A stretch of 64,000 bases of DNA from a virus. The position numbers were made by a program, and so were the translations under genes. Below are positions 5,705 to 52,110 of this stretch, piece by piece (position 1 is the stretch's first letter; every line of letters begins with the position of its first letter). The DNA is taken from positions 1-64,000 of IMG/VR virus record IMGVR_UViG_3300036832_000548; one strand, given 5' to 3'. The notes below the pieces were generated by a model, which saw nothing but the letters and a program-made list of their open reading frames with translations, was not told where the DNA came from and made no database searches.

Positions 5705-6133
5705 GTGAGCACGCAGCACCCCACCGTGGAACTGATCGCCGGCGACGATTGGGAAATCGCCATCACGATGCTGGACGATGCGGGCAACCCGTTCGACCTC
5801 ACCGGCGCGACTATTTCATGGACGCTGATCGATGACGGCGGGCAACAGTTCATCGCACCGGACGAGGTGACCGTATCCGTCGCCACCGACCCCACGACCG
5901 GGGTCGCAACGGTCACCGTCCCCGGCACGGTCACCACCAGACTGAAGACATTCCTCTATCACGACGCCACGCGCATCGTCGTTGCAGGAGTAACCACAAC
6001 GATCTTGGTGGGCGACATCAAGGTCACCTCAGATCCGTTCGTGCCGCCCGTGCCGGTCTACAAGTTCACCAGCAAGGTGACAGGCGCGATGGGAGCGACT
6101 GAAGCTGCTGACACGGCTGATGTTGCAGCATAG
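5705..6133 (+). CDS. Putative virion beta-sandwich (BppU-N-like) protein with C-terminal ATEAAD motif
   Basis: GDDWEIAITMLDDAGNPFDLTGATISW pattern typical of phage structural adaptors; C-terminus GAMGATEAADTADVAA. Confidence 0.55.
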   Translation: MSTQHPTVELIAGDDWEIAITMLDDAGNPFDLTGATISWTLIDDGGQQFIAPDEVTVSVATDPTTGVATVTVPGTVTTRLKTFLYHDATRIVVAGVTTTILVGDIKVTSDPFVPPVPVYKFTSKVTGAMGATEAADTADVAA

Positions 6134-6144
6134 GACGCAGGTCC

Positions 6145-6909
6145 ATGCCCAGCGAAGACGTGCATGAGGTCGCGCAAGCGAATTTCGAGTTCTACAAGGT
6201 CGATGGTGACGTAGCCAGGGACCTTGGACACGACAAGCCGGTCAACGACATGAAGGACGCGGTGCGCGAGGTCGGCGCACACCCTGACCAAGTGCATAAC
6301 GTCGTGCAGCATGTGCTCGAGGCCGCAGACGAAAGCGGCAGCGCAACGAAGGCGCGAGAGGAATTTGATTTCAGCGGGCCGTTCGAAAAGCACCACGACG
6401 CCGCGCTCACCGTGCTGGAACAACACGAAGCAAAAAAACCAAAGGATTGGGGAGAGAGCAAAAAGTGGGAAGGCTGGCCCGATGACGTGACGATCAGTCA
6501 TGAGGCGACGAAGACCACTGTGACTATTAAGTCATTCGGAAGAGATCACAAATATACGGATGGGCAATTGCGTCAGGTGTTGGTGACTGATCTCTTCACA
6601 CCGGAAGAGTTTCGTGGAAAAGGCGGCGCTCATGCGGTAATGACGAAGGTTGAGACATTTTTGGACGTGCATAATCTGGTTGCAGTGCTTAATGCGCCGC
6701 CAGATGAAGAACGACCAGGTCTGCCTCAGCTTCATGCGCTTTATGCGCAGCATGGATTTTTCGCAGGCGCAAATAAACTTGAAATGATCAGATTACCCGG
6801 CGGGGTGAAGCCGACTGAAAAACCCAAGCCAAAAAAGGTTTTGATCCCGACGAGCCGCGCGATGAACAAGGCCGCTGGAGCGATGAGCGAGGCAACTAGC
6901 GAGGCCTAG
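6145..6909 (+). CDS. Hypothetical protein with GNAT-like C-terminal domain
   Basis: LFTPEEFRGKGGAHAVM resembles acetyl-CoA motif A; LHALYAQHGF resembles motif B. Confidence 0.55.
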   Translation: MPSEDVHEVAQANFEFYKVDGDVARDLGHDKPVNDMKDAVREVGAHPDQVHNVVQHVLEAADESGSATKAREEFDFSGPFEKHHDAALTVLEQHEAKKPKDWGESKKWEGWPDDVTISHEATKTTVTIKSFGRDHKYTDGQLRQVLVTDLFTPEEFRGKGGAHAVMTKVETFLDVHNLVAVLNAPPDEERPGLPQLHALYAQHGFFAGANKLEMIRLPGGVKPTEKPKPKKVLIPTSRAMNKAAGAMSEATSEA

Positions 6910-7390: not shown

Positions 7391-7417
7391 CTCCGATCTC
7401 CCTTGCAGGAGGCCATT

Positions 7418-9694
7418 ATGCCTATCAAGCCAGGAAAAGACGAGACGCAGTCGGAATGGATGGCCCGATGCACGCCTGAGATGATTGGCACCGGCGACAA
7501 TAAGCGCCCGCAGGAACAGGCCGTCGCGATCTGCCTCGACATCTGGCGCAACAAGGACAAGACCGCCATGAAACAATCGATCAAGCAATCGTTGCAGCCG
7601 GAAGACGACGAAAGCTATCAGGATTTCATGGACCGCTGCACTGACGAAACCGACGATCAGGATGTCTGCCAGACGCTCTGGGAAGATCGTTCCGTTGGCG
7701 GCATCAAACACAAGACCCACGCCGGCGAGGTCGACGGCACGGAGTATGTGCTCTCTGACGAAACCATCGACCGGATGGGCGACATCATCGAGGCTGACGG
7801 CTGGGATTTTACCAATTTCAAGAAGAACCCCATCGCGCTCGGATTTCACCGTCCCGATTTTCCGATCGGCAAGTGGGCCAATCTTCACATCACTAAGGAC
7901 AAGGAGCTGCGCGGCAAGCTCGAGCTGGCACCCAAGGGCACGTCGCCGCGCCTCGATGAGGTGCGGGCGTTGGTCGAGGCCGGGATTCTCAAGGCCGTAT
8001 CGGTCGGCTTCAAGCCGATCGACAGCATGCCCATCAATCCGAAAGATCCATGGAGCGGATCGCGCTTCATGAAGCAGGAACTGGTCGAATGCTCGCTGGT
8101 ATCAGTGCCGGCGAACGCCAACGCAATCGCGGTGGCAAAGTCACTGAAGCTTTCACCCGAAACGCTGAATCTCGTTTTCGCCGGGGCCGGCAACAAAGAC
8201 GGGACCATCAAGCGGCGCGGGTTCACTGGCGGGACCGCCTCGATACATCGCAACGGAAAGGGCGCGACCATGTCGCTAGCTCAACGAATTACTGAAATTC
8301 AGACCTACATCGGAACCAAAAGCGCCGAACTTGAGGAACACGTCGCGGCGCAGGACGACACCAACGTGTCGGATGAGCAGTACGAGAAGACCAAGCTGCT
8401 CAACGACCAGCTCGCCTCTGCCAGACGGCAGCATGCGATGCTGATCGAGGCTGAGAAGAACATTGCCCCCGGAGGCAGCAAGCCGAACGGCGGCAATGGC
8501 GCAACGCACAGCCGCGCGCTCGCGACGACCGCGTTCACGCAGACGCAAAGTCAAGAGCCGGTGGTGGCTCCAATCATCATCAAGTCCCGCAAGAAGGATT
8601 GGGACGCCATCGATCTACTGGTGCATGCCGGCGCTTCGATAATTGCCGCCAAGAACTGGGGCGTCTCCATCGACGCCGCGCGCACCAAGATCTACGGCGA
8701 GGATGAGCCGACCAAAGTCGTAACGGATTGGGTCATGCGTGCCCCGTCCGCGCCAGCCATGACAACCGTCCCCGGTTGGGCGCAGGAACTCGTCCATCAG
8801 ATCTACGCGGATTTGATGGGCCTGCTGTTTGCCAAGAGCATCTTCCCGCGATTGTCAGGAAGAGGCTTGACCTTGGCGTTCGGTCAGGCAGGCAAGATCG
8901 TGATGCCCACCCGCTCGCGCACGCCTTCGCTGGCTGGCAGTTTCGTAGGCGAGGGCATGGCGATCCCCGTGCGCCAAGGGGCGTTCACGTCTCAGACCTT
9001 CACGCCGAAAAAATTGGCAGTCATCTCCGTCTTCACGAGAGAGATGAGCGAGCATTCGATCCCGGCGATCGAGGGCGTGATCCGTGAGGCCATCGCGCAG
9101 GACACAGCGATTGCCATCGACAGCGTCCTGATCGATTCCAACCCGGCGACGACCATTCGTCCTGCCGGCATCCTCAACGGCGTTGTGGCCCTCACCGCGA
9201 CCGCTGGCGGCGGCATCCCGGCGATCGTGGGCGATCTCAAGCAGCTCGTCGGCGCGCTGATCACCAGCCTCTACGGCAATTTGCGCAACCCGGTCTGGTT
9301 GATGAACCCCGGAGACATGCTGTCCGCATCGCTGGCGACTGCGGTCAACACCGGCATTTTCCCGTTCCAGGAACAGATCAGCCAAGGTCAGTTGGGCAAC
9401 ATCCCGATAATTGACAGTGCAACAGTGCCGTCGAAGACCGTGGTGTTGATCGACGCCTCGGATTTTGTGACGATGCAAGGAGACGCAGTTCGAATGGAAC
9501 TTTCGGACACTGCGACGCTCCATATGGAGGACACAAATCCGCTCGATTTGGTCAGCGGTTCTCCTGGCACTGTTGCATCGCCGCAGCGTTCGCTATTCCA
9601 AACAGACAGCATCGCGCTTCGAATGATCGCGCCGCTCAACTGGGCCATCCGTCGCCCCGGCACCGTGGCGTGGACCCAGAGCGTCACTTGGTAA
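7418..9694 (+). CDS. HK97-family prohead protease fused to major capsid protein
   Basis: DRMGDIIE..NPIALGFH..PIGKW, AVSVGFKP, ELVECSLVSVPAN, then a coiled-coil region and an HK97 capsid domain; AGGAGG SD before ATG 7418. Confidence 0.92.
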   Translation: MPIKPGKDETQSEWMARCTPEMIGTGDNKRPQEQAVAICLDIWRNKDKTAMKQSIKQSLQPEDDESYQDFMDRCTDETDDQDVCQTLWEDRSVGGIKHKTHAGEVDGTEYVLSDETIDRMGDIIEADGWDFTNFKKNPIALGFHRPDFPIGKWANLHITKDKELRGKLELAPKGTSPRLDEVRALVEAGILKAVSVGFKPIDSMPINPKDPWSGSRFMKQELVECSLVSVPANANAIAVAKSLKLSPETLNLVFAGAGNKDGTIKRRGFTGGTASIHRNGKGATMSLAQRITEIQTYIGTKSAELEEHVAAQDDTNVSDEQYEKTKLLNDQLASARRQHAMLIEAEKNIAPGGSKPNGGNGATHSRALATTAFTQTQSQEPVVAPIIIKSRKKDWDAIDLLVHAGASIIAAKNWGVSIDAARTKIYGEDEPTKVVTDWVMRAPSAPAMTTVPGWAQELVHQIYADLMGLLFAKSIFPRLSGRGLTLAFGQAGKIVMPTRSRTPSLAGSFVGEGMAIPVRQGAFTSQTFTPKKLAVISVFTREMSEHSIPAIEGVIREAIAQDTAIAIDSVLIDSNPATTIRPAGILNGVVALTATAGGGIPAIVGDLKQLVGALITSLYGNLRNPVWLMNPGDMLSASLATAVNTGIFPFQEQISQGQLGNIPIIDSATVPSKTVVLIDASDFVTMQGDAVRMELSDTATLHMEDTNPLDLVSGSPGTVASPQRSLFQTDSIALRMIAPLNWAIRRPGTVAWTQSVTW

Positions 9695-9738
9695 TCTTGA
9701 TCAACTAATCAATATTAGCTGATCAACGAACGAACTAA

Positions 9739-9770
9739 CCCGCGCATCAGGCCGTTGTCTGATGCGCGGG
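9739..9770 (+). other. 12-bp GC-rich hairpin after capsid gene
   Basis: CCCGCGCATCAG-N8-CTGATGCGCGGG; no U-tract. Confidence 0.6.
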
Positions 9771-9799
9771 GAATGATTCCCGCAACAAGGAGAAACGCA

Positions 9800-10054
9800 A
9801 TGGCCGACGATCCCGGCAAAGCTATCAAGGAAAAATCCATGGCAGAGTTTGCCAAACGCACCAAAGGCAAGCCCACGCCCACGCAGGATGAACTCGACCG
9901 CGCCAATCTGGGCGAGCACATCACGGAGCATGAGGCTGACGGCTCAGATCCTGACGAGAATGCCGCAACGGTCAAGCAAGCGGAAGCAAAACCCGGCAGC
10001 GGCGGCAGCTATCAAACCCGGCAGGCCACGCCGCAACCGCGCAAGGCTGAGTAG
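9800..10054 (+). CDS. Small hydrophilic head-region protein
   Basis: AAGGAGA SD before ATG 9800; KPTPTQDELD. Confidence 0.7.
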   Translation: MADDPGKAIKEKSMAEFAKRTKGKPTPTQDELDRANLGEHITEHEADGSDPDENAATVKQAEAKPGSGGSYQTRQATPQPRKAE

Positions 10055-10119
10055 CTTAGCTTGGCCCCTTTGCCGGGGCTGAGTGGTGGGGAGCGGGCGC
10101 ATCCACGCGCCGCCCCTAG

Positions 10120-10148
10120 CCGGGGCGGGAAACCGCCCCGGTTAATTT
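10120..10148 (+). terminator. Possible intrinsic terminator/attenuator
   Basis: CCGGGGCGG-GAAA-CCGCCCCGG followed by TTAATTT. Confidence 0.55.
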
Positions 10149-10170
10149 CCCATCCTCACAAAGGCTATCG

Positions 10171-11616
10171 ATGGGCGCGCTCACTCGCATCGCTGACGGA
10201 TTCCGCACGCTGGTCCGCGCCACGGAAGGCGCGTTCAGGCCGGGGCCGTATTATCTGCCGGTGACGGGCGGATGGTTGCCTAACGGCGCAGCCATAAACT
10301 GGTGGCAGCAAGGCTACAACCCGATGGGTGCGCCGGGTTACGGCGCGATGGTCGAGGCCTGCCTCAGCGCCTACTCGCAGACGGTGGCGATGTGCCCCGG
10401 CTCGCATTGGCTGATGAACAACAAGGGCGGGCGCGACCGCGTCACCGTCTCAGCGCTGTCGCGCATCCTGCGGCACCCGAACGACTATCAATCGATTTCC
10501 GATTTCATGCTCAACCTGACGCGCTCGCTGTATTTCGACGGCAACGCTTACGCATTGTGCCTGCGCAACGACCGCTTTGAGATCGACGAACTGCATTTGA
10601 TGAATCCGCTCATGAGCCGCGCGCAGCTCGCGATAACCGGCGACGTGTTCTATACGCTGGCCGGCAACAACGTGATCGCGCAACGGATGGAGGGCGAGCA
10701 AAACATCTCACTGGTCGTCCCGCAACGCGATGTGTTGCATGTGCGACTGCATACGCCGGAATCTAAGCACCCGTTCCCGCTGCGCGGCGAGACGCCGCTT
10801 ATCGCGGCCTATGCCGACATTGCCACCAGCCAAGCCATCTCAAATCAGCAAATCCAGTTCTATCAAAACGAGGCGAGGCCATCGGCGGTGCTGCAGACCG
10901 ACATGGCACTCGACAAGGATCTGGTGCAGGCACTGACGGATCGATGGGACGAAAAAAGCCGGGGTCTGCATCAGGGCAAGACGCCCGTTCTCACCCACGG
11001 TCTCAAAGTGCAGCCCTGGTCCACGCCGGGAAAAGATGCGGCGATTGCGGAGATGATGAAACTCTCGCAGGAGCACATCGCGCTCGCGTTCCGCATCCCG
11101 CTGCAGATCCTCGGCATCGGCGGCACGACCTACAGCTCGACTGAGCTGCTCATGCAATCGTGGATCGCCAGCGGGCTTGGCTTCTGTCTCAACCACATCG
11201 AAGAAGCGTTTGGCGTGACCTTCAATCTGTGGGGACAGCCGGACGAGTACGTGGAGTTTGATACGGCGGCATTGCTGCGCTCTGCCTTCAAGGAACGCAT
11301 CGAAGGACTCGCGCGAGCCGTCCAGGGCGGTGTGTATAGCCCGAATGAAGCCAGAGCAATCGAAGGACTCGACGCGGTAAAATTTGGTGATGAGCCTAGG
11401 CTTCAGGCGCAGGTCGTCCCATTGTCCATTGCTGGTCAGATTCCGACAGCGCCCAGCGCGCCAGCCGCACCCGCACAGCCGGGGGCACCGCAACCGGACA
11501 AGCCGCCAGCACCATCGCAAGACGAGCAAGCCGCAAAACATCAGCGACGAGTACGAAGCCTGATCCATGCAGCAGATCAAATCGACCGACAGCGAGATCG
11601 AGAGCGAGTGGCCTGA
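10171..11616 (+). CDS. HK97-family portal protein
   Basis: PNDYQS..F, GNAYA, DVLHVR, RGETPL, IALAFRIP..LG, SPNEARAIEGL. Confidence 0.93.
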   Translation: MGALTRIADGFRTLVRATEGAFRPGPYYLPVTGGWLPNGAAINWWQQGYNPMGAPGYGAMVEACLSAYSQTVAMCPGSHWLMNNKGGRDRVTVSALSRILRHPNDYQSISDFMLNLTRSLYFDGNAYALCLRNDRFEIDELHLMNPLMSRAQLAITGDVFYTLAGNNVIAQRMEGEQNISLVVPQRDVLHVRLHTPESKHPFPLRGETPLIAAYADIATSQAISNQQIQFYQNEARPSAVLQTDMALDKDLVQALTDRWDEKSRGLHQGKTPVLTHGLKVQPWSTPGKDAAIAEMMKLSQEHIALAFRIPLQILGIGGTTYSSTELLMQSWIASGLGFCLNHIEEAFGVTFNLWGQPDEYVEFDTAALLRSAFKERIEGLARAVQGGVYSPNEARAIEGLDAVKFGDEPRLQAQVVPLSIAGQIPTAPSAPAAPAQPGAPQPDKPPAPSQDEQAAKHQRRVRSLIHAADQIDRQRDRERVA

Positions 11617-12970
11617 CGCCCTGCGCGACACGCTCGGCCAGGTCGTCGCTGACTTGCGCCGCCAGTGGCGGCTCGAGCATGAGGTCATGAGTTCGAACGC
11701 CGCGCGCACCATCGCGGAGCTGCGTGTTGATCTCAACAACCAGCGCACTGAGCTCGCCGCGATGTTCGCGGATACGGTTGTCAAGATGCAAGCGCAGTTC
11801 ACCGCGAGACTGGCTGAGCTGCGCGACGGCAAGGATGGTGCAGCTGGGCCGCAAGGCGACATTGGCCCAGCAGGGGCACAAGGCGAAAAGGGTGAGACTG
11901 GGCCGCAAGGCGAAGCAGGACCGCAGGGGCCGCAGGGCGCGGCGGGCGAGCTGGGCGCTGTTGGCGCTGATGGACCAATAGGTCCGCAGGGCGATCCGGG
12001 ATCGCAGGGCGAGCGTGGCGAACCTGGACCGCAGGGCGAGGCTGGAGCGCAAGGCCAACCGGGCAGCGTCGGCGCTGACGGCTTAACTGGGCCACAGGGC
12101 GAGCGCGGCGAAGCTGGCGCAGCGGGACGCGATGGTGACCACGGGCTCAAGGGCGATCCCGGCCCAGTAGGGCTGCAGGGCGAGCTGGGGCCTGTTGGAG
12201 ACGCAGGGCCACCGGGACCCAGCGGCGAACGCGGCGAACAAGGTTTGCCGGGGATCGCGGGCAAGGACGGCGTACCGGGAAAGCACGGCTTACAGGGAAA
12301 TCGCGGCGAGCGAGGACTTCGCGGCGAAACCGGACGGCAGGGCGAGCCAGGATTGCAGGGCGTTCCTGGCACTGCTGGCACTGCTGGCACAGATGGCGCG
12401 CCGGGAGAACGCGGGTCAGCGGGAGAGAAGGGCGAGCGCGGCGAACAGGGTCCGCGCGGCCTGTTGCAGATCGTCAAGACCTACGAGCCTGACGCTGTCC
12501 ACTATCTGGGCGATGTCGTTAGCCACGACGGCAGCACTTGGCAGGCAAAACGCGACACCGGGCAAGCACCGCCGCATCGGGACTGGATCTGCCTCGCTGC
12601 TGCAGCTCGCGCGATGCGTATCCGCGGCACCTACGAGACTGAGGAAACCTATGCCGCGTTCGATGTGGTGATGAAGGAAAGCTCGTCGCACATCGCACTC
12701 AAGAACGATCCCGGCCCATGTCCCGGTCCCGGCTGGCAGCTCCTGGCGGCATCAGGTCGGCGCGGCGTTGCTGGCGAGCGCGGCGCACACGGCGAGCGCG
12801 GGGCGAAAGGCGAGCGCGGTGATCCCGGCGAGGCTGGATCGATGATCGTCGGTTGGAAAATCGATCGCGAGAACTACACGATCACGCCTGTCGTATCTAA
12901 CGGTCAATACACCGTTCCGCCGCTCAACATGGGCGAACTATTCGAGCAATTCCACACCGAAACCAAATGA
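11567..12970 (+). CDS. Collagen-like protein (about 70 Gly-X-Y triplets) with N-terminal coiled coil and small C-terminal beta modules
   Basis: Uninterrupted GXY run; YLGDVVSHDGSTWQA and YAAFDVV modules. Confidence 0.85.
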   Translation: MQQIKSTDSEIESEWPDALRDTLGQVVADLRRQWRLEHEVMSSNAARTIAELRVDLNNQRTELAAMFADTVVKMQAQFTARLAELRDGKDGAAGPQGDIGPAGAQGEKGETGPQGEAGPQGPQGAAGELGAVGADGPIGPQGDPGSQGERGEPGPQGEAGAQGQPGSVGADGLTGPQGERGEAGAAGRDGDHGLKGDPGPVGLQGELGPVGDAGPPGPSGERGEQGLPGIAGKDGVPGKHGLQGNRGERGLRGETGRQGEPGLQGVPGTAGTAGTDGAPGERGSAGEKGERGEQGPRGLLQIVKTYEPDAVHYLGDVVSHDGSTWQAKRDTGQAPPHRDWICLAAAARAMRIRGTYETEETYAAFDVVMKESSSHIALKNDPGPCPGPGWQLLAASGRRGVAGERGAHGERGAKGERGDPGEAGSMIVGWKIDRENYTITPVVSNGQYTVPPLNMGELFEQFHTETK

Positions 12971-13173
12971 ACAAGCTCGCCATTTTACAGAGCGCACGCA
13001 TTGCAGAGCTGCGTGACCACGCCGCATTGGTCGCCAGCCTTTGCAAAGCGCCGGCGGTTGTCGAATTGCCGCATAACTCCCGGCGCGGCGACCACGACCG
13101 TCGGCGCTTCCTGATGTTGCTGGCGCACGAACGCCGCCGCAACTCCAGACTGGTCAAGCTGCTCGAGGAATAG
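12967..13173 (+). CDS. Hypothetical protein
   Basis: ATGA overlap upstream, abuts next gene. Confidence 0.55.
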   Translation: MNKLAILQSARIAELRDHAALVASLCKAPAVVELPHNSRRGDHDRRRFLMLLAHERRRNSRLVKLLEE

Positions 13174-13174
13174 A

Positions 13175-13828
13175 ATGGTCGACATCATTAAAAAGGTGCT
13201 GACCCCGCCAGACAGCATCGATCTGATGACGCTCGCAGAGGCGCGGCTGATGATCCTCAACATGCCAGGAGGCATCCCGCCTACTGACGAGCAGCTCGCG
13301 CAGATGATCACCCAATATTCCGCGCTGGTCGCGACACTGTGCAATCGGGTGCTTGGCTATCAGACTATGCGCGAGACGTGGCGCGATTTCGAACCGCTGT
13401 ATAACAATTTTGCCTCGCGCCGGTTGTTCCTGTCGATGTGGCCCGTGGTGGAAACGGACATCACCAGCGTGCAAGCGCCGCTTGGCACCGTGCTCGATCC
13501 GTCGACCTACGCGATCGAGGAACTACCCGGCAAGATCGAAATCCTCAACGGCGGCGGCAGCGACCCCATCGTGGTGGACTATTCTGGCGGATACAAATTG
13601 CCTGACGAAGCGCCCCCAGAACTCAAGCAGGCCGTAGGCCTGATGATCAGGCAATACCGATTCCAGAACGTGCTGGCCTCCGGCGTCCGCAGCGTGTCGC
13701 ACAAGGAGTCGCGGGTGCAGTATTTCTCGCCACGCGACATGCTGGCGGTGCAGCCCGTCAGCGGTGGCGTCAACATCACCAGCACCATCGACAACCTGCT
13801 TTCGCACTATCGGCGCGTCGAGATCTGA
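13175..13828 (+). CDS. Head-tail connector (gp6-like adaptor)
   Basis: LMTLAEAR, CNRVL, VDYSGGY..P.ELKQAV, LLSHYRR; position after portal. Confidence 0.8.
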   Translation: MVDIIKKVLTPPDSIDLMTLAEARLMILNMPGGIPPTDEQLAQMITQYSALVATLCNRVLGYQTMRETWRDFEPLYNNFASRRLFLSMWPVVETDITSVQAPLGTVLDPSTYAIEELPGKIEILNGGGSDPIVVDYSGGYKLPDEAPPELKQAVGLMIRQYRFQNVLASGVRSVSHKESRVQYFSPRDMLAVQPVSGGVNITSTIDNLLSHYRRVEI

Positions 13829-14361
13829 TGCCTGAGACATTTGAGGTCGGTGTCGATTGGAAAGTGAAGGAGCTGGGTCCGGTCTTTCGCGAGGCCGTGA
13901 ACCAGATGGCAAAGACTGTCCGCGATCGCGCCCGCCAGGATGTCGCCGGCGGTTTGCATAATTCAGGCCGCTTCGTGCGCGGCACCAACGTCAAGGTCGA
14001 CAAGATCGAGGGCGGATATTCAGTCGATGTGATCCAGCGGCCATCGTTCGCCAAGGTCTGGGAGTTCGGCGGCGTCAGCAGAGGCAATCCATATTTGTGG
14101 TTGCCAGCTCCCGGCAACCGCGCTTTGAAGCGCAACTACAAGGGCAAGCTGATCCGCCCAAAGGGCAGGCGGATTCTGGTCGCCGCCGTTCCCGGCACGA
14201 AGGTCACGGGCATGGCCGGAACCGGCACGACCCAGCGCGGTGACATCAAATACGTCGGCATCAGCTCGATCACCAACCGCAAGCGGTTTCATCTGAGCCA
14301 GATCGCGACGGAAGAAGCCAACAAGTTCATCACGACTTGGACCGCTCTGTTCAAGGCCTAA
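13828..14361 (+). CDS. Putative tail-completion/neck protein
   Basis: Basic protein with FAKVWEFGG motif; neck position. Confidence 0.55.
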   Translation: MPETFEVGVDWKVKELGPVFREAVNQMAKTVRDRARQDVAGGLHNSGRFVRGTNVKVDKIEGGYSVDVIQRPSFAKVWEFGGVSRGNPYLWLPAPGNRALKRNYKGKLIRPKGRRILVAAVPGTKVTGMAGTGTTQRGDIKYVGISSITNRKRFHLSQIATEEANKFITTWTALFKA

Positions 14362-14362
14362 G

Positions 14363-14803
14363 ATGCCTATCGATTTCTCAAACGAGATTTATCTGGTCGC
14401 TCAGAACGTGTTCGGTCGCCCGGTCACGGTGATGCCGCTCGTCAGCCAGCCGGGTGCCGCGAGCTACGGCGGCGTGGGAATATTCGACAGCCGAGAAACC
14501 GACGTGATCGCTGAGGACGGCTCGCTGTTCTCCGACTCCAAAACCATCCTCGATATTCGGATCGAGGATTTCCCGATCCTGCCCATGCAGGGCGACATCG
14601 TTGATGTGTCCGACATGCCGGGAGCGCCGGGAGGTCAATTCGAGGTCGCGGATCTCGCGGGCATAGGCAACGCTGGCGGCGAAATCACGTTGACGCTGAA
14701 ACGTTGGGTGGGATCGCTAATCGTTATGCTACCGCCTGCGGCTGTTGGCCAACTCGTTGCTAAGGAAGCAGCAGCAGATACAGCGGCGTTTTCTGAACCA
14801 TGA
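14363..14803 (+). CDS. Head-closure (lambda gpFII-like) protein with appended motif
   Basis: FGRPVT..GIFD..P.QGD.V..FEV..G.ITLTLK; extra tail GQLVAKEAAADTAAFSEP. Confidence 0.65.
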   Translation: MPIDFSNEIYLVAQNVFGRPVTVMPLVSQPGAASYGGVGIFDSRETDVIAEDGSLFSDSKTILDIRIEDFPILPMQGDIVDVSDMPGAPGGQFEVADLAGIGNAGGEITLTLKRWVGSLIVMLPPAAVGQLVAKEAAADTAAFSEP

Positions 14804-15402
14804 ACGTCACCACGGATGTTAACAGCTACTCGCACATCATCCAGCTCGGGATGCTGGACCGCATGCGGCTGGTGGCACCGTTCATCGGCGCGGCTCGGTA
14901 CGCGCGCTCGAGAGCGCGAGCGATCCGGCCAGAGCACATCCCGCTGGTCGGCTGCTACATCATGGAAGAAGGCTTGTCGCCTGACGGCGAGCCAGCGGTC
15001 GCTGAACCAAGATTCCTGCACCGGCTGACGCTCGCGTTCTCCTACATCATTATGGACAACGACACGGACGAGGTCGAGGACATGCTCGATGTCGGCCATT
15101 GGGCGATCATGGGGCTGCTGCACGATCCAGAGTGGCACCATTTTCCGCAAGGCGTGCGGATCGAGGCGGTCACGGGCGGTAATCGCACGCACCATTTCGG
15201 CAACCTCGGCAGCAGCCAGAACGAGACGCCCATCGCTGAGATGCGGATGGAACTCTATCTGACCTATCGCTCGTCTTTCGAGCCATACGTCAACGACATC
15301 TTCAAGACCTTCCACATGGAGACATCGCAGGTGCCGCCGTATCCGCCTGATGGAGGCATCCCGCCGATCATTATCGAAACAGACCTTTGGGACAACAACT
15401 AG
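14800..15402 (+). CDS. Putative tail terminator protein
   Basis: Size, synteny before sheath, acidic alpha/beta pattern. Confidence 0.5.
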   Translation: MNVTTDVNSYSHIIQLGMLDRMRLVAPFIGAARYARSRARAIRPEHIPLVGCYIMEEGLSPDGEPAVAEPRFLHRLTLAFSYIIMDNDTDEVEDMLDVGHWAIMGLLHDPEWHHFPQGVRIEAVTGGNRTHHFGNLGSSQNETPIAEMRMELYLTYRSSFEPYVNDIFKTFHMETSQVPPYPPDGGIPPIIIETDLWDNN

Positions 15403-15411
15403 GAGACAATC

Positions 15412-15732
15412 ATGGACATCGTGATGAAGCGCGGCGCCCGTCCAGGTCAAGTGCGTCCGCAGGAAAAGGGCTTTATCGAGAGGCGCGTCGTGCGCGTGCT
15501 GCCCACCAGCGATTTGATCCGCAAATATCTCAAGCATCAACCCAGCAAAATCGGCTGGCTCAAGGAAGGCTCAGTCGAGTGGCCTTGGGATTCGTTCACC
15601 CGCAATCGCCTGCGCGACGGCGACATCACGATTGAACCGCCCAAGGCGGCGGCGGCTGACAAGAAGCCAAGCGAGAAAAAGCCAGCTGCAGCGGCAAAGC
15701 CGACAGCGGAAGCCCATCCGAAAACCTCATAA
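15412..15732 (+). CDS. DUF2635-like small protein preceding sheath
   Basis: EGSVEWPWDSFTRNRLRDGDITI; position as Mu gp38-like genes. Confidence 0.7.
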   Translation: MDIVMKRGARPGQVRPQEKGFIERRVVRVLPTSDLIRKYLKHQPSKIGWLKEGSVEWPWDSFTRNRLRDGDITIEPPKAAAADKKPSEKKPAAAAKPTAEAHPKTS

Positions 15733-15815: not shown

Positions 15816-17651
15816 TTGCCTATCAGCTTTAACAACATACCCTCTAACTGGCGCATGCCACTCTACTGGGCGGAAATCGATCCATCGCAAGCGGGCTTGC
15901 CGATCGTCCGCAACATCGCGCTGATCGTCGGCACCATGAACTCGCAAACCAACATGGAAGTCCAGACGGCGACCGTTGCCACAGGCGGCGGCGGCCTCGG
16001 CTACGTGGTCAACGACGAAATCACGCTGCAATTTGGCGTCACCCTCAAGGTCACCACAGTGGCGTCCGGTGCCGTCACCGGCGTGACCGTCGAGACACCC
16101 GGCGCATTCCCCGGCTCTGCGCCACTGCCGCCCAACCCGCTGACGCAAGTCACGACGACCGGCGTCGGCCTGAACGCGAGCTTCGATGTGACGTGGATAC
16201 AGACGCTGGCGACCAGCGATTTCGGCGGCGTCGGGGTGCCATGGGTTCCGAAGCCGATGGGCACGCAGGCGCAAGCCGATAGCGAGTATGGCATCGGCTC
16301 AGAACTGAGCTGCATGTTTCAAAGCTTCTTCGGAAACAACTTTGCTCAGGAGGTTTGGTGCCTGCCGGTTCCGCCCGCGCCTAACGCGACAGCGTCGGCG
16401 GCGCAGGTGCAAATCCTGACACCCGCGACCGAGGCCGGAACGATCCATCTCTATGTCGCCGGTCATCACGTCGACAACGTCAATGTTGGCACAACTGATA
16501 CGGTGCAAAACATTGCTAATACATTGGCGACCGGCATCAATGACGATCCGACGCTGCCAGTGGTTGCGACGGTCGGCACGGCTCCCAACGACGACACAAT
16601 CACCATCACTTGCAAGACACCGGGGCTGAACGGCAACGACATCACCCTGCTGCTCAACTATTACGGCAAGGTCGGCGGCCAGGAATTGCCGAAAGGCGTC
16701 ACGCTGAGCGTGCCGCCGCAGCTAGGCCAAGGAACTGGCGGCGTGGTTGGTGCCGGCATCCCTGATTTCGGCTATGCCATCAGCAATCTTGGCGAACATG
16801 AGTTCGAATACATCGCGCTGCCCTATACCGACAGCAATACACTGTTTGATTGGGAGCAGGAGTGGTCGTTCGAGGACACGGGGCGTTGGGGGTGGATGAG
16901 ACAGCTCTACGGGCATTTGTTTTGTGCCCGACGAGACACCTACACCAATCTCATCATCTATGGCGAAACCCGCAACTTTGGGGCGACCTCGATCATGGGG
17001 ATCGAACCGGACGCGGCATCGCCAACCTATGAGTGGGCCGCAGCATACACGGCAAAAGCCGCTCGAGCCCTGACTAACGATCCAGCACGGCCTCTCCAAA
17101 CATTGTCGCTCAACACGATGTTGGCGGCACAACCGGAGCGCCGGTTCAATCTTCCTGAGCTCAACAGTCTGGCGGGCGTCGGCATCGCGACTCAGAAGAC
17201 CGGCACCGACAACATCCCGCGCATCATGCGGGAAACGACCACGGCGCAGTTGAATAGTCTGGGCTACAGTGACGACGCATATGAGTTGGTCACGACCTTG
17301 GCCACGCTCGCTGCACTGATCCGCAATCAGCGGCAGGCGATCACCAGCAAATTCCCGCGCTACAAACTTGGAGATGACGGAATTCGCGTGGGTCCGGGCC
17401 AAAAATTGGTGACGCCAAAGTCGATCGCCGCAGAGCTCGTCGCGCAATATCGGATCGATGAGTTCAACGGTCTCGTAGAAAATGTGGATGCGTTCAAGCA
17501 ACACCTCATCGTAGAAAGAGACGTAAATAACCCGAACCGGCTGAACGTGCTCTATCCGCCAGATCTGGTTAACCAATTACGTGTGTTTGCCGTGCTCGTT
17601 CAGTTCAGGCTTCAGTACGACAGAGGCCAGGACCTCGAGATCATCACCTAA
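15816..17651 (+). CDS. Tail sheath protein (Mu gpL-like)
   Basis: ISFNNIPSNWRMPLYWAEID, RWGWMRQLYGH, DPARPLQTL, NPNRLNVLYPPDLVNQLRVFA; TTG start after GGGAGG. Confidence 0.95.
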   Translation: MPISFNNIPSNWRMPLYWAEIDPSQAGLPIVRNIALIVGTMNSQTNMEVQTATVATGGGGLGYVVNDEITLQFGVTLKVTTVASGAVTGVTVETPGAFPGSAPLPPNPLTQVTTTGVGLNASFDVTWIQTLATSDFGGVGVPWVPKPMGTQAQADSEYGIGSELSCMFQSFFGNNFAQEVWCLPVPPAPNATASAAQVQILTPATEAGTIHLYVAGHHVDNVNVGTTDTVQNIANTLATGINDDPTLPVVATVGTAPNDDTITITCKTPGLNGNDITLLLNYYGKVGGQELPKGVTLSVPPQLGQGTGGVVGAGIPDFGYAISNLGEHEFEYIALPYTDSNTLFDWEQEWSFEDTGRWGWMRQLYGHLFCARRDTYTNLIIYGETRNFGATSIMGIEPDAASPTYEWAAAYTAKAARALTNDPARPLQTLSLNTMLAAQPERRFNLPELNSLAGVGIATQKTGTDNIPRIMRETTTAQLNSLGYSDDAYELVTTLATLAALIRNQRQAITSKFPRYKLGDDGIRVGPGQKLVTPKSIAAELVAQYRIDEFNGLVENVDAFKQHLIVERDVNNPNRLNVLYPPDLVNQLRVFAVLVQFRLQYDRGQDLEIIT

Positions 17652-17729: not shown

Positions 17730-18092
17730 GTGGCCCAGCGCATCGCAGGAACCGCGTTCTGCAAAGTCGATGGAAATATGCTGCCGCTGCGCGGGAACTT
17801 TACGGTCTCGCCCAGCTCGCTCGAGCGGACGTTTTTGGCCGGCCAGGATTATGTGCATGGCTACCAAGAACTGCCGCGCGTTCCGTGGATCGAAGGCGAC
17901 ATCAGCTCAACACCTGACATTTCGATGGAAGGCCTTGAGCAAATGATCGACGTGACCGTGACCGCAGAGCTGGCCAACGGCAAGGTGTATGTGCTGAAGG
18001 AGGCGGCCTGCAAGAGCGCGCTGGAAAACAACACCCGAGAGGGTCAGTTCCGCGTCAAGTTCGAAGGCACGACCTGCGAAGAGATTGGCTAG
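17730..18092 (+). CDS. Tail tube protein (Mu gpM-like)
   Basis: RIAGTAFCKVDG, GQDYVHGYQELP, VTAELANGKVYVL. Confidence 0.92.
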   Translation: MAQRIAGTAFCKVDGNMLPLRGNFTVSPSSLERTFLAGQDYVHGYQELPRVPWIEGDISSTPDISMEGLEQMIDVTVTAELANGKVYVLKEAACKSALENNTREGQFRVKFEGTTCEEIG

Positions 18093-47258: not shown

Positions 47259-47627
47259 ATGACGATGAGCACTTCCTTCCGCGAGGACTGGAAGGTCGGC
47301 AGCGCATTGCTCGCCGCGTTGTTGGCGCTTGGCATCATTGGCGCGGTCATCGTTTATTTAATGACTCCTGCGCCAGCACAACAAGTGTCACCGCCGTCAG
47401 CAGATTTGTATGCCGACATTCCGTTCGATCCAAAGCTGTTGCAAATCGACAAGACGGCGCTGACTGAGGCATACCACGATCAGCTCAAGCATCTATTTGA
47501 CATCTGGCTCCGGGGACAGGCGCAGAGCACCAAGGAAATCACCACGGGGCTAAAGATCGCGCGGCGCGCATACGGCATTGCCGCTGGGCAGATTGCCAAG
47601 CGCGAAGCAGAGGCCGGACTGAAATGA
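47259..47627 (+). CDS. Membrane-anchored/exported hypothetical protein
   Basis: N-terminal TM helix then APA-QQ; helical C-terminus. Confidence 0.65.
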   Translation: MTMSTSFREDWKVGSALLAALLALGIIGAVIVYLMTPAPAQQVSPPSADLYADIPFDPKLLQIDKTALTEAYHDQLKHLFDIWLRGQAQSTKEITTGLKIARRAYGIAAGQIAKREAEAGLK

Positions 47628-47664
47628 GCATCGAGGGCGCATATGCCAAGGCAGAAGGAGAACG

Positions 47665-48045
47665 ATGATGGCTGTGAACTATTCCAATTCGATCAAAGAC
47701 CAAAGGATGACGGCAGCATTGAACGGCATCGACAACAATGCCGCGCCAGCCTACATCGAGATCTGCACGGCTGCGTTTGCCGCGGTGCTGGTGACGATCA
47801 CGCTGGCCAAGCCAAGCTTCACTGAAGCCGCGCAAACGCTCACGATGGCGGGCGCGCCAAAGTCAGGCGTTGCTGGCGGGAACGGCACTGCTGCGGTCGC
47901 CCGTATCAAGGACGGCGGCGGCACGGTGCAGGTCAACAATCTGTCTGTTGGCACGTCAGGCTCTGACATCAATCTCAATAGCGTGGCTATAAGTTCTGGT
48001 CAGACCGTTACGCTTTCTTCGGGGACTGTGACCCACGCGCCGTGA
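47665..48045 (+). CDS. Small all-beta putative virion fibre/decoration subunit
   Basis: GTAAVARIKDGGG..SVGTSGSDINLNSVAISSGQTVTLSS; AAGGAG SD. Confidence 0.6.
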   Translation: MMAVNYSNSIKDQRMTAALNGIDNNAAPAYIEICTAAFAAVLVTITLAKPSFTEAAQTLTMAGAPKSGVAGGNGTAAVARIKDGGGTVQVNNLSVGTSGSDINLNSVAISSGQTVTLSSGTVTHAP

Positions 48046-48057: not shown

Positions 48058-48759
48058 ATGGGCGAAACAAAAATAGAGCGTCACCGTCGTCAATGCCGCG
48101 AAGCTACACGCCGATGGCGCGCACGGCACAAAGCGGGCATGCCAAAGCGCATCATGCAGGCTGCACCGGAGGGAATCGCACTGTATCCGATCCCCGGTTA
48201 CAGCAATTACATGATTGATGATGATGGCATCTTATATTCGCGGTTACCATTTCACGCGCCGCGAATAGAAGATGGCAACTTTGTCCCGTGGCGCGTTGTC
48301 CCGCTGAATAGATCGTTAAGAAAAGGGGCGAATGGTCACAACTATTTCACGGTGAGAATACGCGCCGATGCTGAGAAAAAACGAAAGCGCGTCTTAGTGC
48401 ATCGGCTGGCAGCACTGGCATTCCTTGGTCCGCGTCCGACCGGAATGTTTGTTGCGCATGAACAACTAGGATTTGAAAATAATTCGCGTGCTAATCTGTC
48501 CTACAAAACGCCTAAACAAAACAAAGCAGATGAGCTTAGAGACGGCACGCGCTATCAGGGCGAAGAGCATCATGAAGTGCGGATACATAATGCCATCTGG
48601 CCGGAGCTAGTGGTTCGATGGAATGCGGGCATAGAACGTAAATCGGATATTTGTCGCGAGTACAAGATCAGCCATCAGGCCGTGAGGCGTCGATTGGCGC
48701 GTGAAAATCCATACAGCAGGCCGGACTTCGCGGGTGCATTTGAAGGATTAGTAACATGA
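48058..48759 (+). CDS. NUMOD4-like/HNH homing endonuclease
   Basis: IPGYSNYMI...G, VHRLAALAFLG, AH..NNSRANLSY.T.KQN. Confidence 0.8.
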   Translation: MGETKIERHRRQCREATRRWRARHKAGMPKRIMQAAPEGIALYPIPGYSNYMIDDDGILYSRLPFHAPRIEDGNFVPWRVVPLNRSLRKGANGHNYFTVRIRADAEKKRKRVLVHRLAALAFLGPRPTGMFVAHEQLGFENNSRANLSYKTPKQNKADELRDGTRYQGEEHHEVRIHNAIWPELVVRWNAGIERKSDICREYKISHQAVRRRLARENPYSRPDFAGAFEGLVT

Positions 48760-48923
48760 CGTTCGAACAAGAACTCAAGGCAGCAATCGACCAACATCGC
48801 GGCGAAGGCTTCGAAAAGCTGCGGGCCGTAGTCGATGCGATCTTCGCCAAGCATGGTCGCGAGATCCCGCAACCGATCACCGGCACCATTGAGACAGTTG
48901 ACCCTGGCGATAGGCTGCAATGA
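48756..48923 (+). CDS. Small hypothetical protein (55 aa)
   Basis: Hand-translated MTFEQELKAAIDQHRGEG..ITGTIETVDPGDRLQ; ATGA overlaps on both ends. Confidence 0.6.
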   Translation: MTFEQELKAAIDQHRGEGFEKLRAVVDAIFAKHGREIPQPITGTIETVDPGDRLQ

Positions 48924-49327
48924 CTCAGCAAACGATCGGCATTGGTTCCGCGCCCAACGACGGCACCGGCGATCCGGTTAGAACTGCGTTCGACAAGTGC
49001 AATAAAAATTTCACTGAGCTCTATCAGACCCAGCGGCGCGTCACGTCCTCGCCCATCACGATTACATCGACTGATGCGATCATAAATTGCAACATCAGCA
49101 GCGGCTCGCCTACTTGTACCTTGCCGCCATCCGCCTCGCGCGGAGGCCTGCCGCTCATCTTCAAGGATGTCGGGGGTCATTTCGCCGCTAACAACCTGAC
49201 CATCACTGCGGCAGCTAGCGAATTTATCGACGGGCTGACCACCATCGTACTCAGCACGAATTACCAGAGGCTGAAGCTGCTTCCAGTCAATGACGGCGTT
49301 GGAGTGGGGTGGATCATTGACCAATGA
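48920..49327 (+). CDS. Virion protein with T4 gp9/gp10-like N-terminal motif
   Basis: IGSAPNDGTGDPVRTAFDKCNKNFTELY; C-terminal domain closely similar to the C-terminus of 42095..43495. Confidence 0.65.
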   Translation: MTQQTIGIGSAPNDGTGDPVRTAFDKCNKNFTELYQTQRRVTSSPITITSTDAIINCNISSGSPTCTLPPSASRGGLPLIFKDVGGHFAANNLTITAAASEFIDGLTTIVLSTNYQRLKLLPVNDGVGVGWIIDQ

Positions 49328-52110
49328 CATTCCCAACTGCCGATCTCACAACGATCACGGCAGACAGAACTGATTTCACTGCCGACGCTTCCGTTACGCT
49401 AACTGCCGACACGACGAAATTCACGGCGGATAGCACCAGCATATCCGCCGATATGATCATGCTGCCGGGTGCCGTGGGCACACTGGCGGCGACGGAAGCG
49501 GCAGACGGCGCGACATTTGCTGGTGCGGTTGCGTGGCCGGTCATCACCGGCACGTTGGTCGCAACCGACGTTGCTGATGGCGCAGCATTCAGCGCAACGT
49601 CAGTCACGCTCGGGGCATTGGCGGCGACTGAGAGCAGCGACACTGCGGCATTTTCCGGTGCGGCGGCTACTCTTGGATCGCTAGCGGCGACAGACGCTAG
49701 TGACGCCACGACGTTCGCCGGTCAAGTCGCTTGGCTCGGAACAATCGCCGCGACGGAAGGCGCGGATACCAGCACATTCTCTGGCATCATCGGATTGCTC
49801 GGCTCGCTGGCGGCTGAAGAGATCGATGATGCGGCAAGTTTCACCGGCTCTGCAGTTACGTTTGGATCGTTCGCTGCGAACGAGGCTATCGATACCGCAG
49901 CGTTTGCTGGCACTGCCGTCACGCTCGGCAGCTTTGCGCTCACTGAAGATGTCGACACGGCGGATTTCGCGGGCGGTCTCGTTGGCCTCTCGACGCTGAC
50001 GGCACAGGAAGGCCCGGATAGTGCTGCGGTCAGCGGCCAGGTCGAATGGTTCGTAACTCTAACGGCGACGGAAGGCGCGGATAGCGGTTCGTTTGCGGGT
50101 CTGACCGGTCTGCTTGGTTCGCTCGCGGCGACTGACGATCTCGATACGGCGGCAATCGACGGCGCGGTTGATTGGCAGCTCGAACTCGCGGCTGTTGAGG
50201 GCTCTGACGCTGCAGCGTTCAGCGGGCAGAGCGAATGGATCGCCACCCTAGCCGCGACTGAAGGCGCGGACGTTGCGGCCTTTGTCGTATCGTCAGCGTT
50301 CAGCGGCATCCTCGCCGCGACTGATGATCTCGACACCGCAGTGTTCAGCGGACTTGCTGGTGCGATCGGCCAGGTCGCGGCGGTCGAGGCGGGCGACAGC
50401 GCGTCGTTCAGCGGCCAAGTCGAAACCGTTGTGGCGCTGGCCGCGACGGAGGACGCAGATGCAGCCGCGTTCGCTGGCGAGCTGGTCTGGGCCGGGACGC
50501 TGGCAGCGGTTGAAGCCAGCGATATCGTGGCCTTCGCTGGCGGGATCTCAACGGCCGGCGCGTTGGCGGCGACTGAGGACATCGATACCGCAGCGTTCTC
50601 CGGTTCTGGCTATCTGATCTATGCCAGCCTCGCCGCCACAGACGCGGTCGATGCTGCGGCATTCAGCGGACTGGCTGGTGTGCTGGGATCGCTGACGGCG
50701 CTCGAGGGCGCTGATCAGGCGACGTTCGCGGTCACAGCCACATGGCTTGGCACGCTGGCCGCGACTGAGCGCGCTGACGACGCCTATTTCCCCGGCGAGT
50801 CGATTACGTTTGGCACGGTCGCCGCGACTGACGGGCAAGACGCGCCGTCCTTCAGCGGCACGGTCGCATGGCAAGGTGCCCTTGCTGCGGCAGAGATTGG
50901 CGACCGTGCGGGATTTGCCGGTCAAGCGGCCTTTCTAGCCACGCTGGCTGCAATCGAGCTGCCAGACGCCGCCAGCCTCACGGGCGCGGTAGCGTGGCTG
51001 GGCACGCTGGCCGCTCAGGAGGCGGCGACCGATACAGCCTCGATCCAGGGGCTTGTAAGCGCCTACGGTGCGCTAGCTGCCAACGAGGCAGGCGACAGGG
51101 CCAGCCTAACCGCCAGCGTGCAGACCCTCGGGTCTCTGGCAGCAACGGAACTCCGTGACACCGCTGCGTTCAGTTCGCAGGTCGGGGTCAGCGGAACCCT
51201 AGCGGCGAATGAGACCGCCAGCGACACTGCCAGTTTCGGGCTGTCTGCCCAAACGCTCGGTGTCATAAGCGCGATTGAAGCAGCCGGTGATGCCGCCGCG
51301 TTCAGCGGGGAGGCTGGTCGCGTCGGCACGCTGGCCGCGACTGAGACGACGGTCGATGCCGCGCAGTTTCAGGGTCAAGTCGTTTGGGTCGCCACGCTGG
51401 CGGCGGTCGATGGTCCCGACAGCGCGCAGCTTGCGGGGCGCGTTACCTGGTTCGCCACTCTGGCGGCGAACGAAGGTCCTGACGCCGCCAGCTTCAGTGT
51501 CACCCTCGGATGGCTGGGTGCGCTCGCCGCGCATGAGGCGCCTGACAGCGCCAGCATCACGGCTGTTGCCCAGACGTTTGCAACGCTCGAGGCGGTCGAG
51601 CGTCCAGACAGCGCGGCGATATACGGCATAGCCGGCATAGTCGGTTCGCTCAATGCGCACGAAGCGCCCGACACATTTCAGGCCAGCGCGGTGGCCGGCG
51701 CGATCGGCGCGCTCGCCGCGCTCGAGGCACCGGATCGCGCGAGCTTCACGTCAGCTGACGTTCAGACGGTTCAGTTCGTTGCAAGGAAAATCCCGCTCGA
51801 TGTCACGGTCACCGTCAAGCCACGGATTGTCGCCGTCGTCAGGCAGGTCGACACGGCGTGGCAAACCAATGTCACAGCGTCAGGCTATAGCGATGCTGTT
51901 CAAAGCAAGCAAACGCGCATCACGGCGACCAATCGGCAGACTGAGTTTACTGGCCAGAGCACGCCGCTCGATAATGTTATTACGTTCAAACCAAGCGGCC
52001 TGAGTTCTACAAGCAAAAAGATCGGCGCAACTGCCGACATGAAGATCACTGCATCTGGCTATCAGGCGACGGCGCAAGGCAAGCGGACGGGGTGGAAAGG
52101 AAAGCCATGA
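49324..52110 (+). CDS. Long repeat protein (about 36 x 21-aa GxLAAxExxDxAxFxG units)
   Basis: Repeats counted by eye; N-terminal TADxTxx heptad repeats. Confidence 0.85.
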   Translation: MTFPTADLTTITADRTDFTADASVTLTADTTKFTADSTSISADMIMLPGAVGTLAATEAADGATFAGAVAWPVITGTLVATDVADGAAFSATSVTLGALAATESSDTAAFSGAAATLGSLAATDASDATTFAGQVAWLGTIAATEGADTSTFSGIIGLLGSLAAEEIDDAASFTGSAVTFGSFAANEAIDTAAFAGTAVTLGSFALTEDVDTADFAGGLVGLSTLTAQEGPDSAAVSGQVEWFVTLTATEGADSGSFAGLTGLLGSLAATDDLDTAAIDGAVDWQLELAAVEGSDAAAFSGQSEWIATLAATEGADVAAFVVSSAFSGILAATDDLDTAVFSGLAGAIGQVAAVEAGDSASFSGQVETVVALAATEDADAAAFAGELVWAGTLAAVEASDIVAFAGGISTAGALAATEDIDTAAFSGSGYLIYASLAATDAVDAAAFSGLAGVLGSLTALEGADQATFAVTATWLGTLAATERADDAYFPGESITFGTVAATDGQDAPSFSGTVAWQGALAAAEIGDRAGFAGQAAFLATLAAIELPDAASLTGAVAWLGTLAAQEAATDTASIQGLVSAYGALAANEAGDRASLTASVQTLGSLAATELRDTAAFSSQVGVSGTLAANETASDTASFGLSAQTLGVISAIEAAGDAAAFSGEAGRVGTLAATETTVDAAQFQGQVVWVATLAAVDGPDSAQLAGRVTWFATLAANEGPDAASFSVTLGWLGALAAHEAPDSASITAVAQTFATLEAVERPDSAAIYGIAGIVGSLNAHEAPDTFQASAVAGAIGALAALEAPDRASFTSADVQTVQFVARKIPLDVTVTVKPRIVAVVRQVDTAWQTNVTASGYSDAVQSKQTRITATNRQTEFTGQSTPLDNVITFKPSGLSSTSKKIGATADMKITASGYQATAQGKRTGWKGKP

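Follow-up and report, generated by a model that had tools for sequence, protein, structure and literature searches.

Rope-and-bead (chain-like) virion fibers have been described for the phages GP4, VP1, A1002, Sf14 and Bas63 (PMC12609058, PMC13730344). So far such fibers come from a handful of cryo-EM structures (2024–2026), and their ropes were found in density rather than in sequence. Here we analyzed the first 64,000 nucleotides (the window) of the IMG/VR record IMGVR_UViG_3300036832_000548, an 82,591-bp genome that is complete according to CheckV. It is a contractile-tailed soil phage. One protein of this phage, which we call the rope protein, carries 36 copies of a 21-residue unit; the unit occurs singly at the C-termini of two other proteins, and a small protein, the bead protein, is encoded close to the array. 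We consider it likely that the window encodes a two-protein rope-and-bead fiber.

In Bas63, the whisker protein gp5 consists of an N-terminal helix, which mediates dimerization, and an incomplete sandwich. The whisker dimers are arranged end to end, like beads on a string, on an N-terminal "rope" of the collar protein that passes through grooves of the whisker monomers and completes their sandwiches (PMC12609058). In GP4, five Fiber-1 dimers are borne by a separate rope protein (PMC12609058). In A1002, eleven dimers and a rope ~300 Å long form augmented beta-sheets, with ~27 Å per dimer (PMC13730344). The word "repeat" is absent from the main text of that paper. In phage 7-7-1, thirty-six gp014 homodimers ring the distal baseplate and contact the fibers, and the proteins of the capsid fibers are stated to be unknown (PMC12796354).

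The window differs from each of these systems in some respect. The whisker-collar of the myophages Bas63 (JohannRWettstein) and Sf14 (PDB 9mt4, 9c39) has a bead fold like that predicted for the window bead, at 9–10% sequence identity. The Bas63 rope, however, is an N-terminal extension of an immunoglobulin-like (Ig-like) collar protein and carries two dimers, whereas the window has a separate 928-residue rope with 36 regular units and, unlike Bas63, single units fused to other virion proteins. The podophage chain-like fibers of GP4 (Fiber I gp80, rope protein and fiber-tail-adaptor, PDB 8jou), VP1 (gp11) and A1002 have tandem docking sites for bead dimers, and docking is by beta-sheet augmentation; the GP4 rope is a separate protein, as in our reading of the window. 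In A1002, judging by gene numbers, the beads gp40 and gp41 follow the nozzle-rope gp39. The 7-7-1 garland protein gp014 (PDB 9rkv chain A) sits on the distal baseplate and touches the tail fibers, with no rope described for it; the 21-residue unit had no match in phage 7-7-1 at E ≤ 10. Two bead-like genes of that phage (000103 and 000105; JQ312117 51386..52764) lie right after the long-tail-fiber gene. The first-pass annotation of the window had found no described system to match, which these chain-like fibers contradict. Our literature search for a tandem-repeat rope found no relevant paper, which is no proof that none exists.

The repeat array, the bead protein and their linkage

The genes and the array at the center of the analysis are the following.

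47665..48045, + strand: bead protein, 126 residues (phrog_3758, "virion structural protein")
48920..49327, + strand: 135-residue protein with a T4 gp9/gp10-type N-terminus (PF07880, E 1.3e-7; phrog_677, phrog_958), here called gp10N-like
49324..52110, + strand: rope protein, 928 residues (open reading frame (ORF) translation)
49477..51759, + strand: array of 36 units (rope residues 52–812)

The rope protein starts with 51 residues outside the array and ends, after the 36 units, in a non-repeat region of 116 residues. The units run head to tail, 31 of them 21 residues and five 22 residues long, and align to the consensus xxxGxLAAxExxDxAxFxGxx, in which the Asp is invariant. HMMER delimited 36 domains in the rope ORF and a whole-genome search returned 36 places, in agreement with the roughly 36 GxLAAxExxDxAxFxG units given by the first-pass annotation. 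Because the DNA copies of the unit are only 60–80% alike and Tandem Repeats Finder did not report the array, we consider the array old and maintained at the protein level. Residues 1–51 (49324..49476) hold about six short hydrophobic-T-A-D heptads (xTAD; for instance FPTADLT, TITADRT and FTADASV), which differ from the 21-residue units. The protein gp7 of Curvibacter phage P26059A also begins with short repeats, of the FDSAVFD type.

P26059A was the only match of the rope protein among named phages (tblastn). No Pfam or PHROG family matched the rope, and no credible relative was found among PDB sequences with either the rope protein or an 8-unit profile (lone match Cam1, E 0.51). Among the best 8000 candidates scored, at least 170 homologues reached E ≤ 1e-3, with lengths of 510–1624 residues. 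Extra Pfam domains occur on 22 of the 120 homologues listed, among them PF13385 (on nine), PF00622, PF00754, PF01833 and PF03629; we take the families behind these accessions to bear names such as Laminin_G_3, SPRY and TIG. A variable globular part precedes the array in the six homologues that we read. The unit was also traced by a degenerate DNA pattern for ATExxDTAAF, which gave 85 stretches in IMG/VR; at the score threshold applied, the ORFs found in this way carry between 3 and 34 units.

Across phages, the unit comprises a 12-residue core, L-A-A-T-E-A-x-D-T-A-A-F, followed by about nine variable residues. The core is a sequence mirror, with the pairs L/F, A/A, A/A, T/T and E/D placed around A-x. 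Its mirror-pair score is 10.87, compared to −1.54 ± 2.46 for random pairings, and none of 20,000 random pairings reached 10.87. Direct pairing of the core scored −4.79.

Rope proteins vary in layout. The rope of the genome-size relative G001 (81,984 bp; L003 2887..6864, 1325 residues, 38 units) continues after its units with a second, different Gly/Ala-rich periodic region and then a C-terminal domain. In a second relative, G002 (82,286 bp), the count is 11+3 units. Short ropes of ~280–325 residues (L098, L101, L117, L100, L104 and L153) form a compact subfamily in which 3–6 units precede a conserved C-terminal region (ERPxPVEGxGYGILPxLEGEAHGVV ... DDDEAAAxxWMLAA); their genes lie 0.6–1.7 kb upstream of the adaptor gene.

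The AlphaFold2 model of the bead protein, based on an alignment of 58 relatives, has a predicted local distance difference test score (pLDDT) of 95.7 and a predicted template modeling score (pTM) of 0.86. It consists of a helix at residues 8–22 followed by a beta-sandwich, so the description as a small all-beta protein in the first-pass annotation was right for the sandwich and overlooked the N-terminal helix. The model matches the whisker chains of Sf14 and Bas63 and the 7-7-1 garland protein. As modeled, the bead protein has the features of the whisker/Fiber I fold, namely a length of ~105–170 residues, an N-terminal helix and an incomplete beta-sandwich. The sequence match to 9rkv chain A firms as the profile deepens, from E 0.29 to 0.024 and then 6.5e-4, giving the bead both sequence and fold homology to this chain of the garland protein (gp014) family. 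We equate 9rkv chain A with gp014 by its length and by the position of the gene next to the long-tail-fiber gene. Similarly, chains I–M of 9mt4 are presumably the whisker gp5, judging from their length, their copy number and the paper's list of structural neighbors.

Membership of the bead in PF23140 (Gp80, the GP4 fiber monomer family) had been suggested by an ESM-Atlas lead (score 0.84, with the family on 24% of the cluster's members). This assignment was rejected; none of the 58 bead sequences matches PF23140 at E ≤ 1, and other Pfam matches are just sub-threshold noise. Among the ORFs matching the bead model, no natural fusion of a bead to a unit was found. The window has one bead gene only, whereas both large relatives have two tandem bead paralogues (G001:C1:32588-33357, E 5e-60 and 3.5e-16; G002:C1:66748-67518, E 5e-52 and 5.7e-20), which recall the two bead proteins gp40 and gp41 of A1002. 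In G001, genes for a 660-residue protein with an N-terminal hydrophobic stretch and a 139-residue protein separate the bead gene from the rope gene.

In the window, the bead and rope genes lie 1.3 kb apart on the same strand. We assessed this linkage in two samples that were selected independently, one by the repeat and one by the bead, although some contigs are common to both. Sample A comprises the loci found by the repeat DNA pattern, 76 of them with an array of at least three units; 32 are testable, having at least 4 kb of upstream sequence. A bead gene lies upstream on the same strand in 30 of these 32 loci (25 of 27 distinct arrays). Sample B was drawn with the bead alone; of at least 529 IMG/VR loci recovered in this way, the 80 best were used, and 60 of these are testable, with at least 3 kb of downstream sequence. 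An array of at least three units follows downstream on the same strand in 53 of the 60, and in 31 of 38 once beads at least 95% alike are removed. The bead gene and the unit-bearing gene often abut or overlap. In the phage records MW202496 and P26059A, one gene lies between the bead gene and the downstream rope gene. The adaptor gene is in the same locus for 26 of the 80 bead loci and, where inspected, follows the bead-rope pair by 1–2 kb.

Single units on other virion proteins

Three proteins of the window are relevant to the single units.

14363..14803, + strand: gpFII-like neck (head-tail attachment) protein, 146 residues (PF05354, 28.6 bits; cut-off 26)
14741..14794, + strand: C-terminal single unit of the gpFII-like protein, GQLVAKEAAADTAAFS (E 0.0026, 15.8 bits)
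5705..6133, + strand: phrog_1084-like protein, 142 residues (phrog_1084, E 1.4e-10)
6077..6130, + strand: C-terminal single unit of the phrog_1084-like protein, GAMGATEAADTADVAA (second HMM, 12.5 bits, E 0.0024)
14800..15402, + strand: neck-region protein, 200 residues, between the gpFII-like and sheath genes; no unit in the window

We built a hidden Markov model (HMM) from the 36 units of the window and scored it on all 1,231 six-frame ORFs of at least 30 residues (1,230 besides the array ORF). In order to avoid circularity, a second HMM was built from 224 units of other phages only. With the window HMM, the C-termini of the gpFII-like protein (12.5 bits by domain) and of the phrog_1084-like protein (7.8 bits) are the best two of the 1,230, and the third-best ORF has a domain score of 2.3 bits and a whole-ORF score of 4.0 bits. 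The same two ORFs lead with the second HMM (5705..6133 with 12.5 bits, 14363..14803 with 7.7 bits), the next scoring 2.2. In a search of the whole 82.6-kb genome, 14741..14794 was the sole match outside the array, and the tail of 5705..6133 was missed. The first-pass annotation had placed the unit on both of these C-termini, where the two models now find it, and more weakly on a third, that of 48756..48923. The window HMM gives this last ORF −4.1 bits and places it 616th of the 847 ORFs scored; the second HMM yields no score for it, and we rejected this copy.

The gpFII-like protein fits the Lambda gpFII/Phage_attach family (PF05354), since it exceeds the gathering score and lies within the neck gene cluster, in the order adaptor, one gene, gpFII-like, two genes, sheath. 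Its C-terminal extension of ~25 residues consists of a Pro-rich linker and one unit. Two homologues share this tail, P0124 (88% identity) and P0126 (74–75%), encoded on short contigs of 4,055 and 1,474 bp, respectively, with 13.3–14.5 bits and with the key residues of the unit retained; in the conserved form, a Pro-rich linker leads into G-x-[LF]-V-A-x-E-A-A-D-I-A-A-F. The tail is missing in the other 37 of 39 homologues. The close relatives P0125 (85–89%) and P0127 end ~22 residues sooner, and among gpFII-like proteins just the three long forms (window, P0124 and P0126) score with either HMM. As the tail is kept in P0124 and P0126 and absent from P0125, P0127 and other short forms, it is a conserved, optional module. 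A related-locus search with 14363..14803 alone returned no relative, and a profile of 30 gpFII-like sequences had no match among PDB sequences.

The phrog_1084-like protein likewise ends in a linker (DPFVPPVP...) and one unit. In a set of 5.8 billion proteins, no close orthologue was found besides the protein itself. A distant homologue, L010 3021..3674, has the same domain and a DPF.P.VP linker, followed by three units (16.6–25.2 bits). The Ig-like hits of the phrog_1084-like protein are weak and below threshold (Big_3, E 0.01; Invasin_D3, E 0.016). From these hits the protein is probably Ig-like, and, if so, it may be a counterpart of the Ig-like collar protein or the fiber-tail adaptor, which we offer as a lead only. 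Homologues of this protein are encoded directly after the rope gene in at least 10 distinct loci.

A third carrier was found among the homologues of the protein encoded after the gpFII-like gene. The 200-residue neck protein 14800..15402 has no match in Pfam or the PDB; phmmer found its homologues in L175 (E 8.5e-23) and L163 (E 7.6e-15), with four and one N-terminal units, respectively. In L163, the adaptor gene comes first, then one gene, the gpFII-like gene, the bead gene and the gene of the one-unit neck protein, with the sheath further on; the N-terminus M-A-T-I-T-G-T-L-A-T-V-E-A-A-D-V-A-A-I of this neck protein is the unit. In L175, the order is gpFII-like, bead, the neck protein with four units, and sheath. 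Units are thus carried by the gpFII-like protein (window, P0124 and P0126), the next neck protein (L163 and L175) and the phrog_1084-like protein (window and L010). There are therefore three different carriers of units, encoded beside the bead gene or, in the window, the gpFII-like protein itself.

Readings of the array and its partner

In the rope-and-bead reading, which we favor, the bead protein would form homodimers with an open sandwich edge, as in the described fibers, and each 21–22-residue unit of the rope would be one docking segment for bead dimers. The core LAATE-Ax-DTAAF may form a short hairpin or strand pair and, by beta-strand augmentation, complete the sandwiches in a bead dimer of two-fold symmetry. 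The core reads nearly alike in both directions, and a hairpin whose two arms mirror each other would suit the dyad of a homodimer. The nine variable residues would then reach the next dimer. The 36 units could carry 18 to 36 dimers, in a beaded filament tens of nanometers to ~100 nm long; at the A1002 spacing of ~27 Å per dimer, 18–36 dimers would span roughly 50–100 nm. The single units on the gpFII-like and phrog_1084-like proteins would be rope stubs, each docking one bead dimer on the virion, and on the neck ring such a stub would amount to a minimal collar. A candidate baseplate anchor for the long rope is the gp10N-like protein, whose gene lies directly upstream of the rope gene.

We infer the binding of bead to unit by analogy with the described fibers. 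The first-pass annotation had likewise read the motif as a docking or donor strand, the long protein as a scaffold and the single copies as attachment points. This proposal is supported by the predicted bead fold and its matches, the linkage of the genes, and the fusions of one to four units to neck proteins. For a rope that threads the beads and completes their sheets, the linkage, the fusions and the mirror-symmetric core give indirect support.

Several observations weigh against the rope-and-bead reading. The likeness of the bead to the whiskers is at the level of the fold only (9–10% identity), and the identity of 9mt4 chains I–M as gp5 is our assignment from chain length and the text of the paper. 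The unit has no sequence likeness to any PDB chain, including the solved ropes, and any homology to those ropes is therefore hypothetical. No array of at least three units was found in seven of the 60 testable bead loci. Three of the seven have no unit; of the remaining four, L163 has one unit, L164 two, and L170 and L171 weak single matches. Rhizobium phage RHph_TM27A has a bead and no unit at E ≤ 1. Finally, G001 and G002 have ropes and beads together with gpFII-like proteins that lack the tail. The tails are therefore optional, and we rejected the rule that presence of a rope gene entails a tail on the gpFII-like protein.

The first-pass annotation had named a solenoid fold of the repeats alone as an outcome that would refute its proposal; the model of the rope units without a partner is ambiguous on this point. 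AlphaFold2 returned a beta-helix for eight units with a pLDDT of 70.8, a moderate confidence, and Foldseek found nothing in the PDB for this model at E ≤ 0.001. The rope may thus fold by itself, as a single-chain beta-helical rod with one coil per unit (~17 nm for 36 coils), or the helix may be the program's product of a repeat deprived of its partner. In this case, the small protein would only cap, anchor or decorate the rod from outside, in the manner of the 7-7-1 garland dimers, which contact the long tail fiber at its beta-helical part; single units on other proteins would stack on the open end of the rod. We regard the rod as rather unlikely. Repeats modeled alone often come out as solenoids, and proteins with only 1, 3 or 4 units exist beside the bead gene; the one-unit proteins speak against a rod because one coil cannot form a beta-helix. 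In addition, T, E, D and T, which are residues of surface type, hardly vary among the phages, a pattern more in keeping with a binding site than with the core of a rod. No sequence relation was found between the units and known right-handed parallel beta-helix rods (HxuA, FHA TPS domains, pectate lyases and tailspikes); the likeness to them rests on the moderate-confidence model, and forms of one to four units cannot build such a rod.

The array could instead be the shaft of a homotrimeric fiber, an intertwined triple beta-helix or three packed helices, with the lectin-like domains of the homologues as receptor-binding heads and the small protein as an assembly chaperone or adaptor. The extra domains on 22 of the 120 listed homologues (PF13385 on nine, PF00622, PF00754 and PF01833) would suit such a fiber, as would the location of the rope gene, which closes the tail-fiber block and comes after the gene for a protein with a T4 gp10-type N-terminus, and 21 residues equal three times seven. 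No 7-residue sub-period is evident in the unit, however. A chaperone is also at odds with the PHROGs listing of the bead family as a virion structural protein and with its fold relatives, which are structural parts of virions, and a trimeric shaft is a misfit with single units fused to hexameric neck proteins. We consider this shaft improbable. Even less credence goes to the view that the two C-terminal tails are functionless, either chance ends rich in Ala, Thr, Glu and Asp or remnants of recombination. Their scores are modest (7.7–15.8 bits), they are missing in G001, G002 and most orthologues, and for 5705..6133 there is no close orthologue in which to look for conservation of the tail. Nevertheless, the two tails rank above all other ORFs, the array ORF apart, under two different HMMs, the key residues of the gpFII-like tail are kept in three proteins 74–88% identical overall, and the L010 homologue of 5705..6133 has three clear units after the same linker.

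The architecture of the rope-and-bead fiber has already been described. What is new, at the level of sequence, is a regular, sequence-defined and mirror-symmetric rope unit, together with ropes of at least 36 units, separate ropes with lectin-type domains, and single-unit stubs on neck proteins. With the 21-residue unit and its mirror-symmetric LAATEAxDTAAF core, a rope would for the first time be defined by sequence, in association with a bead family of at least 529 IMG/VR loci. At 36 units in the window and no fewer than 34 in a relative, these ropes are far longer than the solved ones, which carry 2, 5 and 11 dimers. If the reading is true, the one to four units grafted on neck proteins and on the putative Ig-like protein would explain how fibers are anchored and how their length is set. 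It would also offer a route to naming two very common "hypothetical" phage genes, and a modular pair of tag and bead from which protein filaments of a set length might be built.

A bolder and more doubtful extension of the rope-and-bead reading is that the unit is an autonomous, portable tag that recruits one bead dimer to any virion protein, and that the number of units (1 to ~43 in nature) sets the length of the beaded fiber like a ruler. Since the two grooves of a dimer would be equivalent, units belonging to different proteins could be linked by one dimer. The 36-unit rope could then be connected with the stubs, both the one on the neck and the one on the Ig-like protein, and ropes would be knit into collars or garlands. 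In that case, the unit would also be a signature with which to find rope-and-bead fibers with lectin-like heads in hundreds of uncultured soil phages.

Genome context of the block

The remaining features of the window are as follows.

63..1682: terminase
7403..9694: protease-capsid fusion
10171..11616: portal
11567..12970: collagen-like protein, 467 residues (many PHROG "tail fiber" families, best E 1.9e-55)
13175..13828: head-tail adaptor
15816..17651: sheath
17730..18092: tube
Beyond the tube gene: baseplate hub and wedge genes, then a fiber block ending at 47243
48058..48759, + strand: HNH endonuclease, between the bead and rope genes (PF13392, phrog_59)
52319..53602: endolysin

A megablast of 7403-17651 found no close relative at the DNA level among named phages. 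The bead and rope genes lie in a 4.5-kb block, together with the HNH gene, a 55-residue ORF and the gp10N-like gene, and this block is flanked by a perfect 19-nt direct repeat (47624..47642, + strand, and 52107..52125; 100% identity, spacing 4483 nt). Within the block, the stop of the gp10N-like gene and the start of the rope gene overlap (ATGA). The gp10N-like protein was rejected as a constant partner of the rope, having been seen in just two repeat-selected loci (L051 and L022).

In most relatives, the bead-rope pair adjoins the neck genes, unlike in the window, which suggests that the module moved in this phage, maybe as a cassette. The collagen-like gene 11567..12970, between portal and adaptor, occupies the position of the bead-rope pair of the relatives. 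In L163, a collagen-like ORF likewise ends just ahead of the adaptor gene. Directly after the terminase gene, a 437-residue ORF (1997..3310) weakly resembles major head proteins (phrog_617, E 2e-13) and is present alongside the protease-capsid fusion at 7403..9694.

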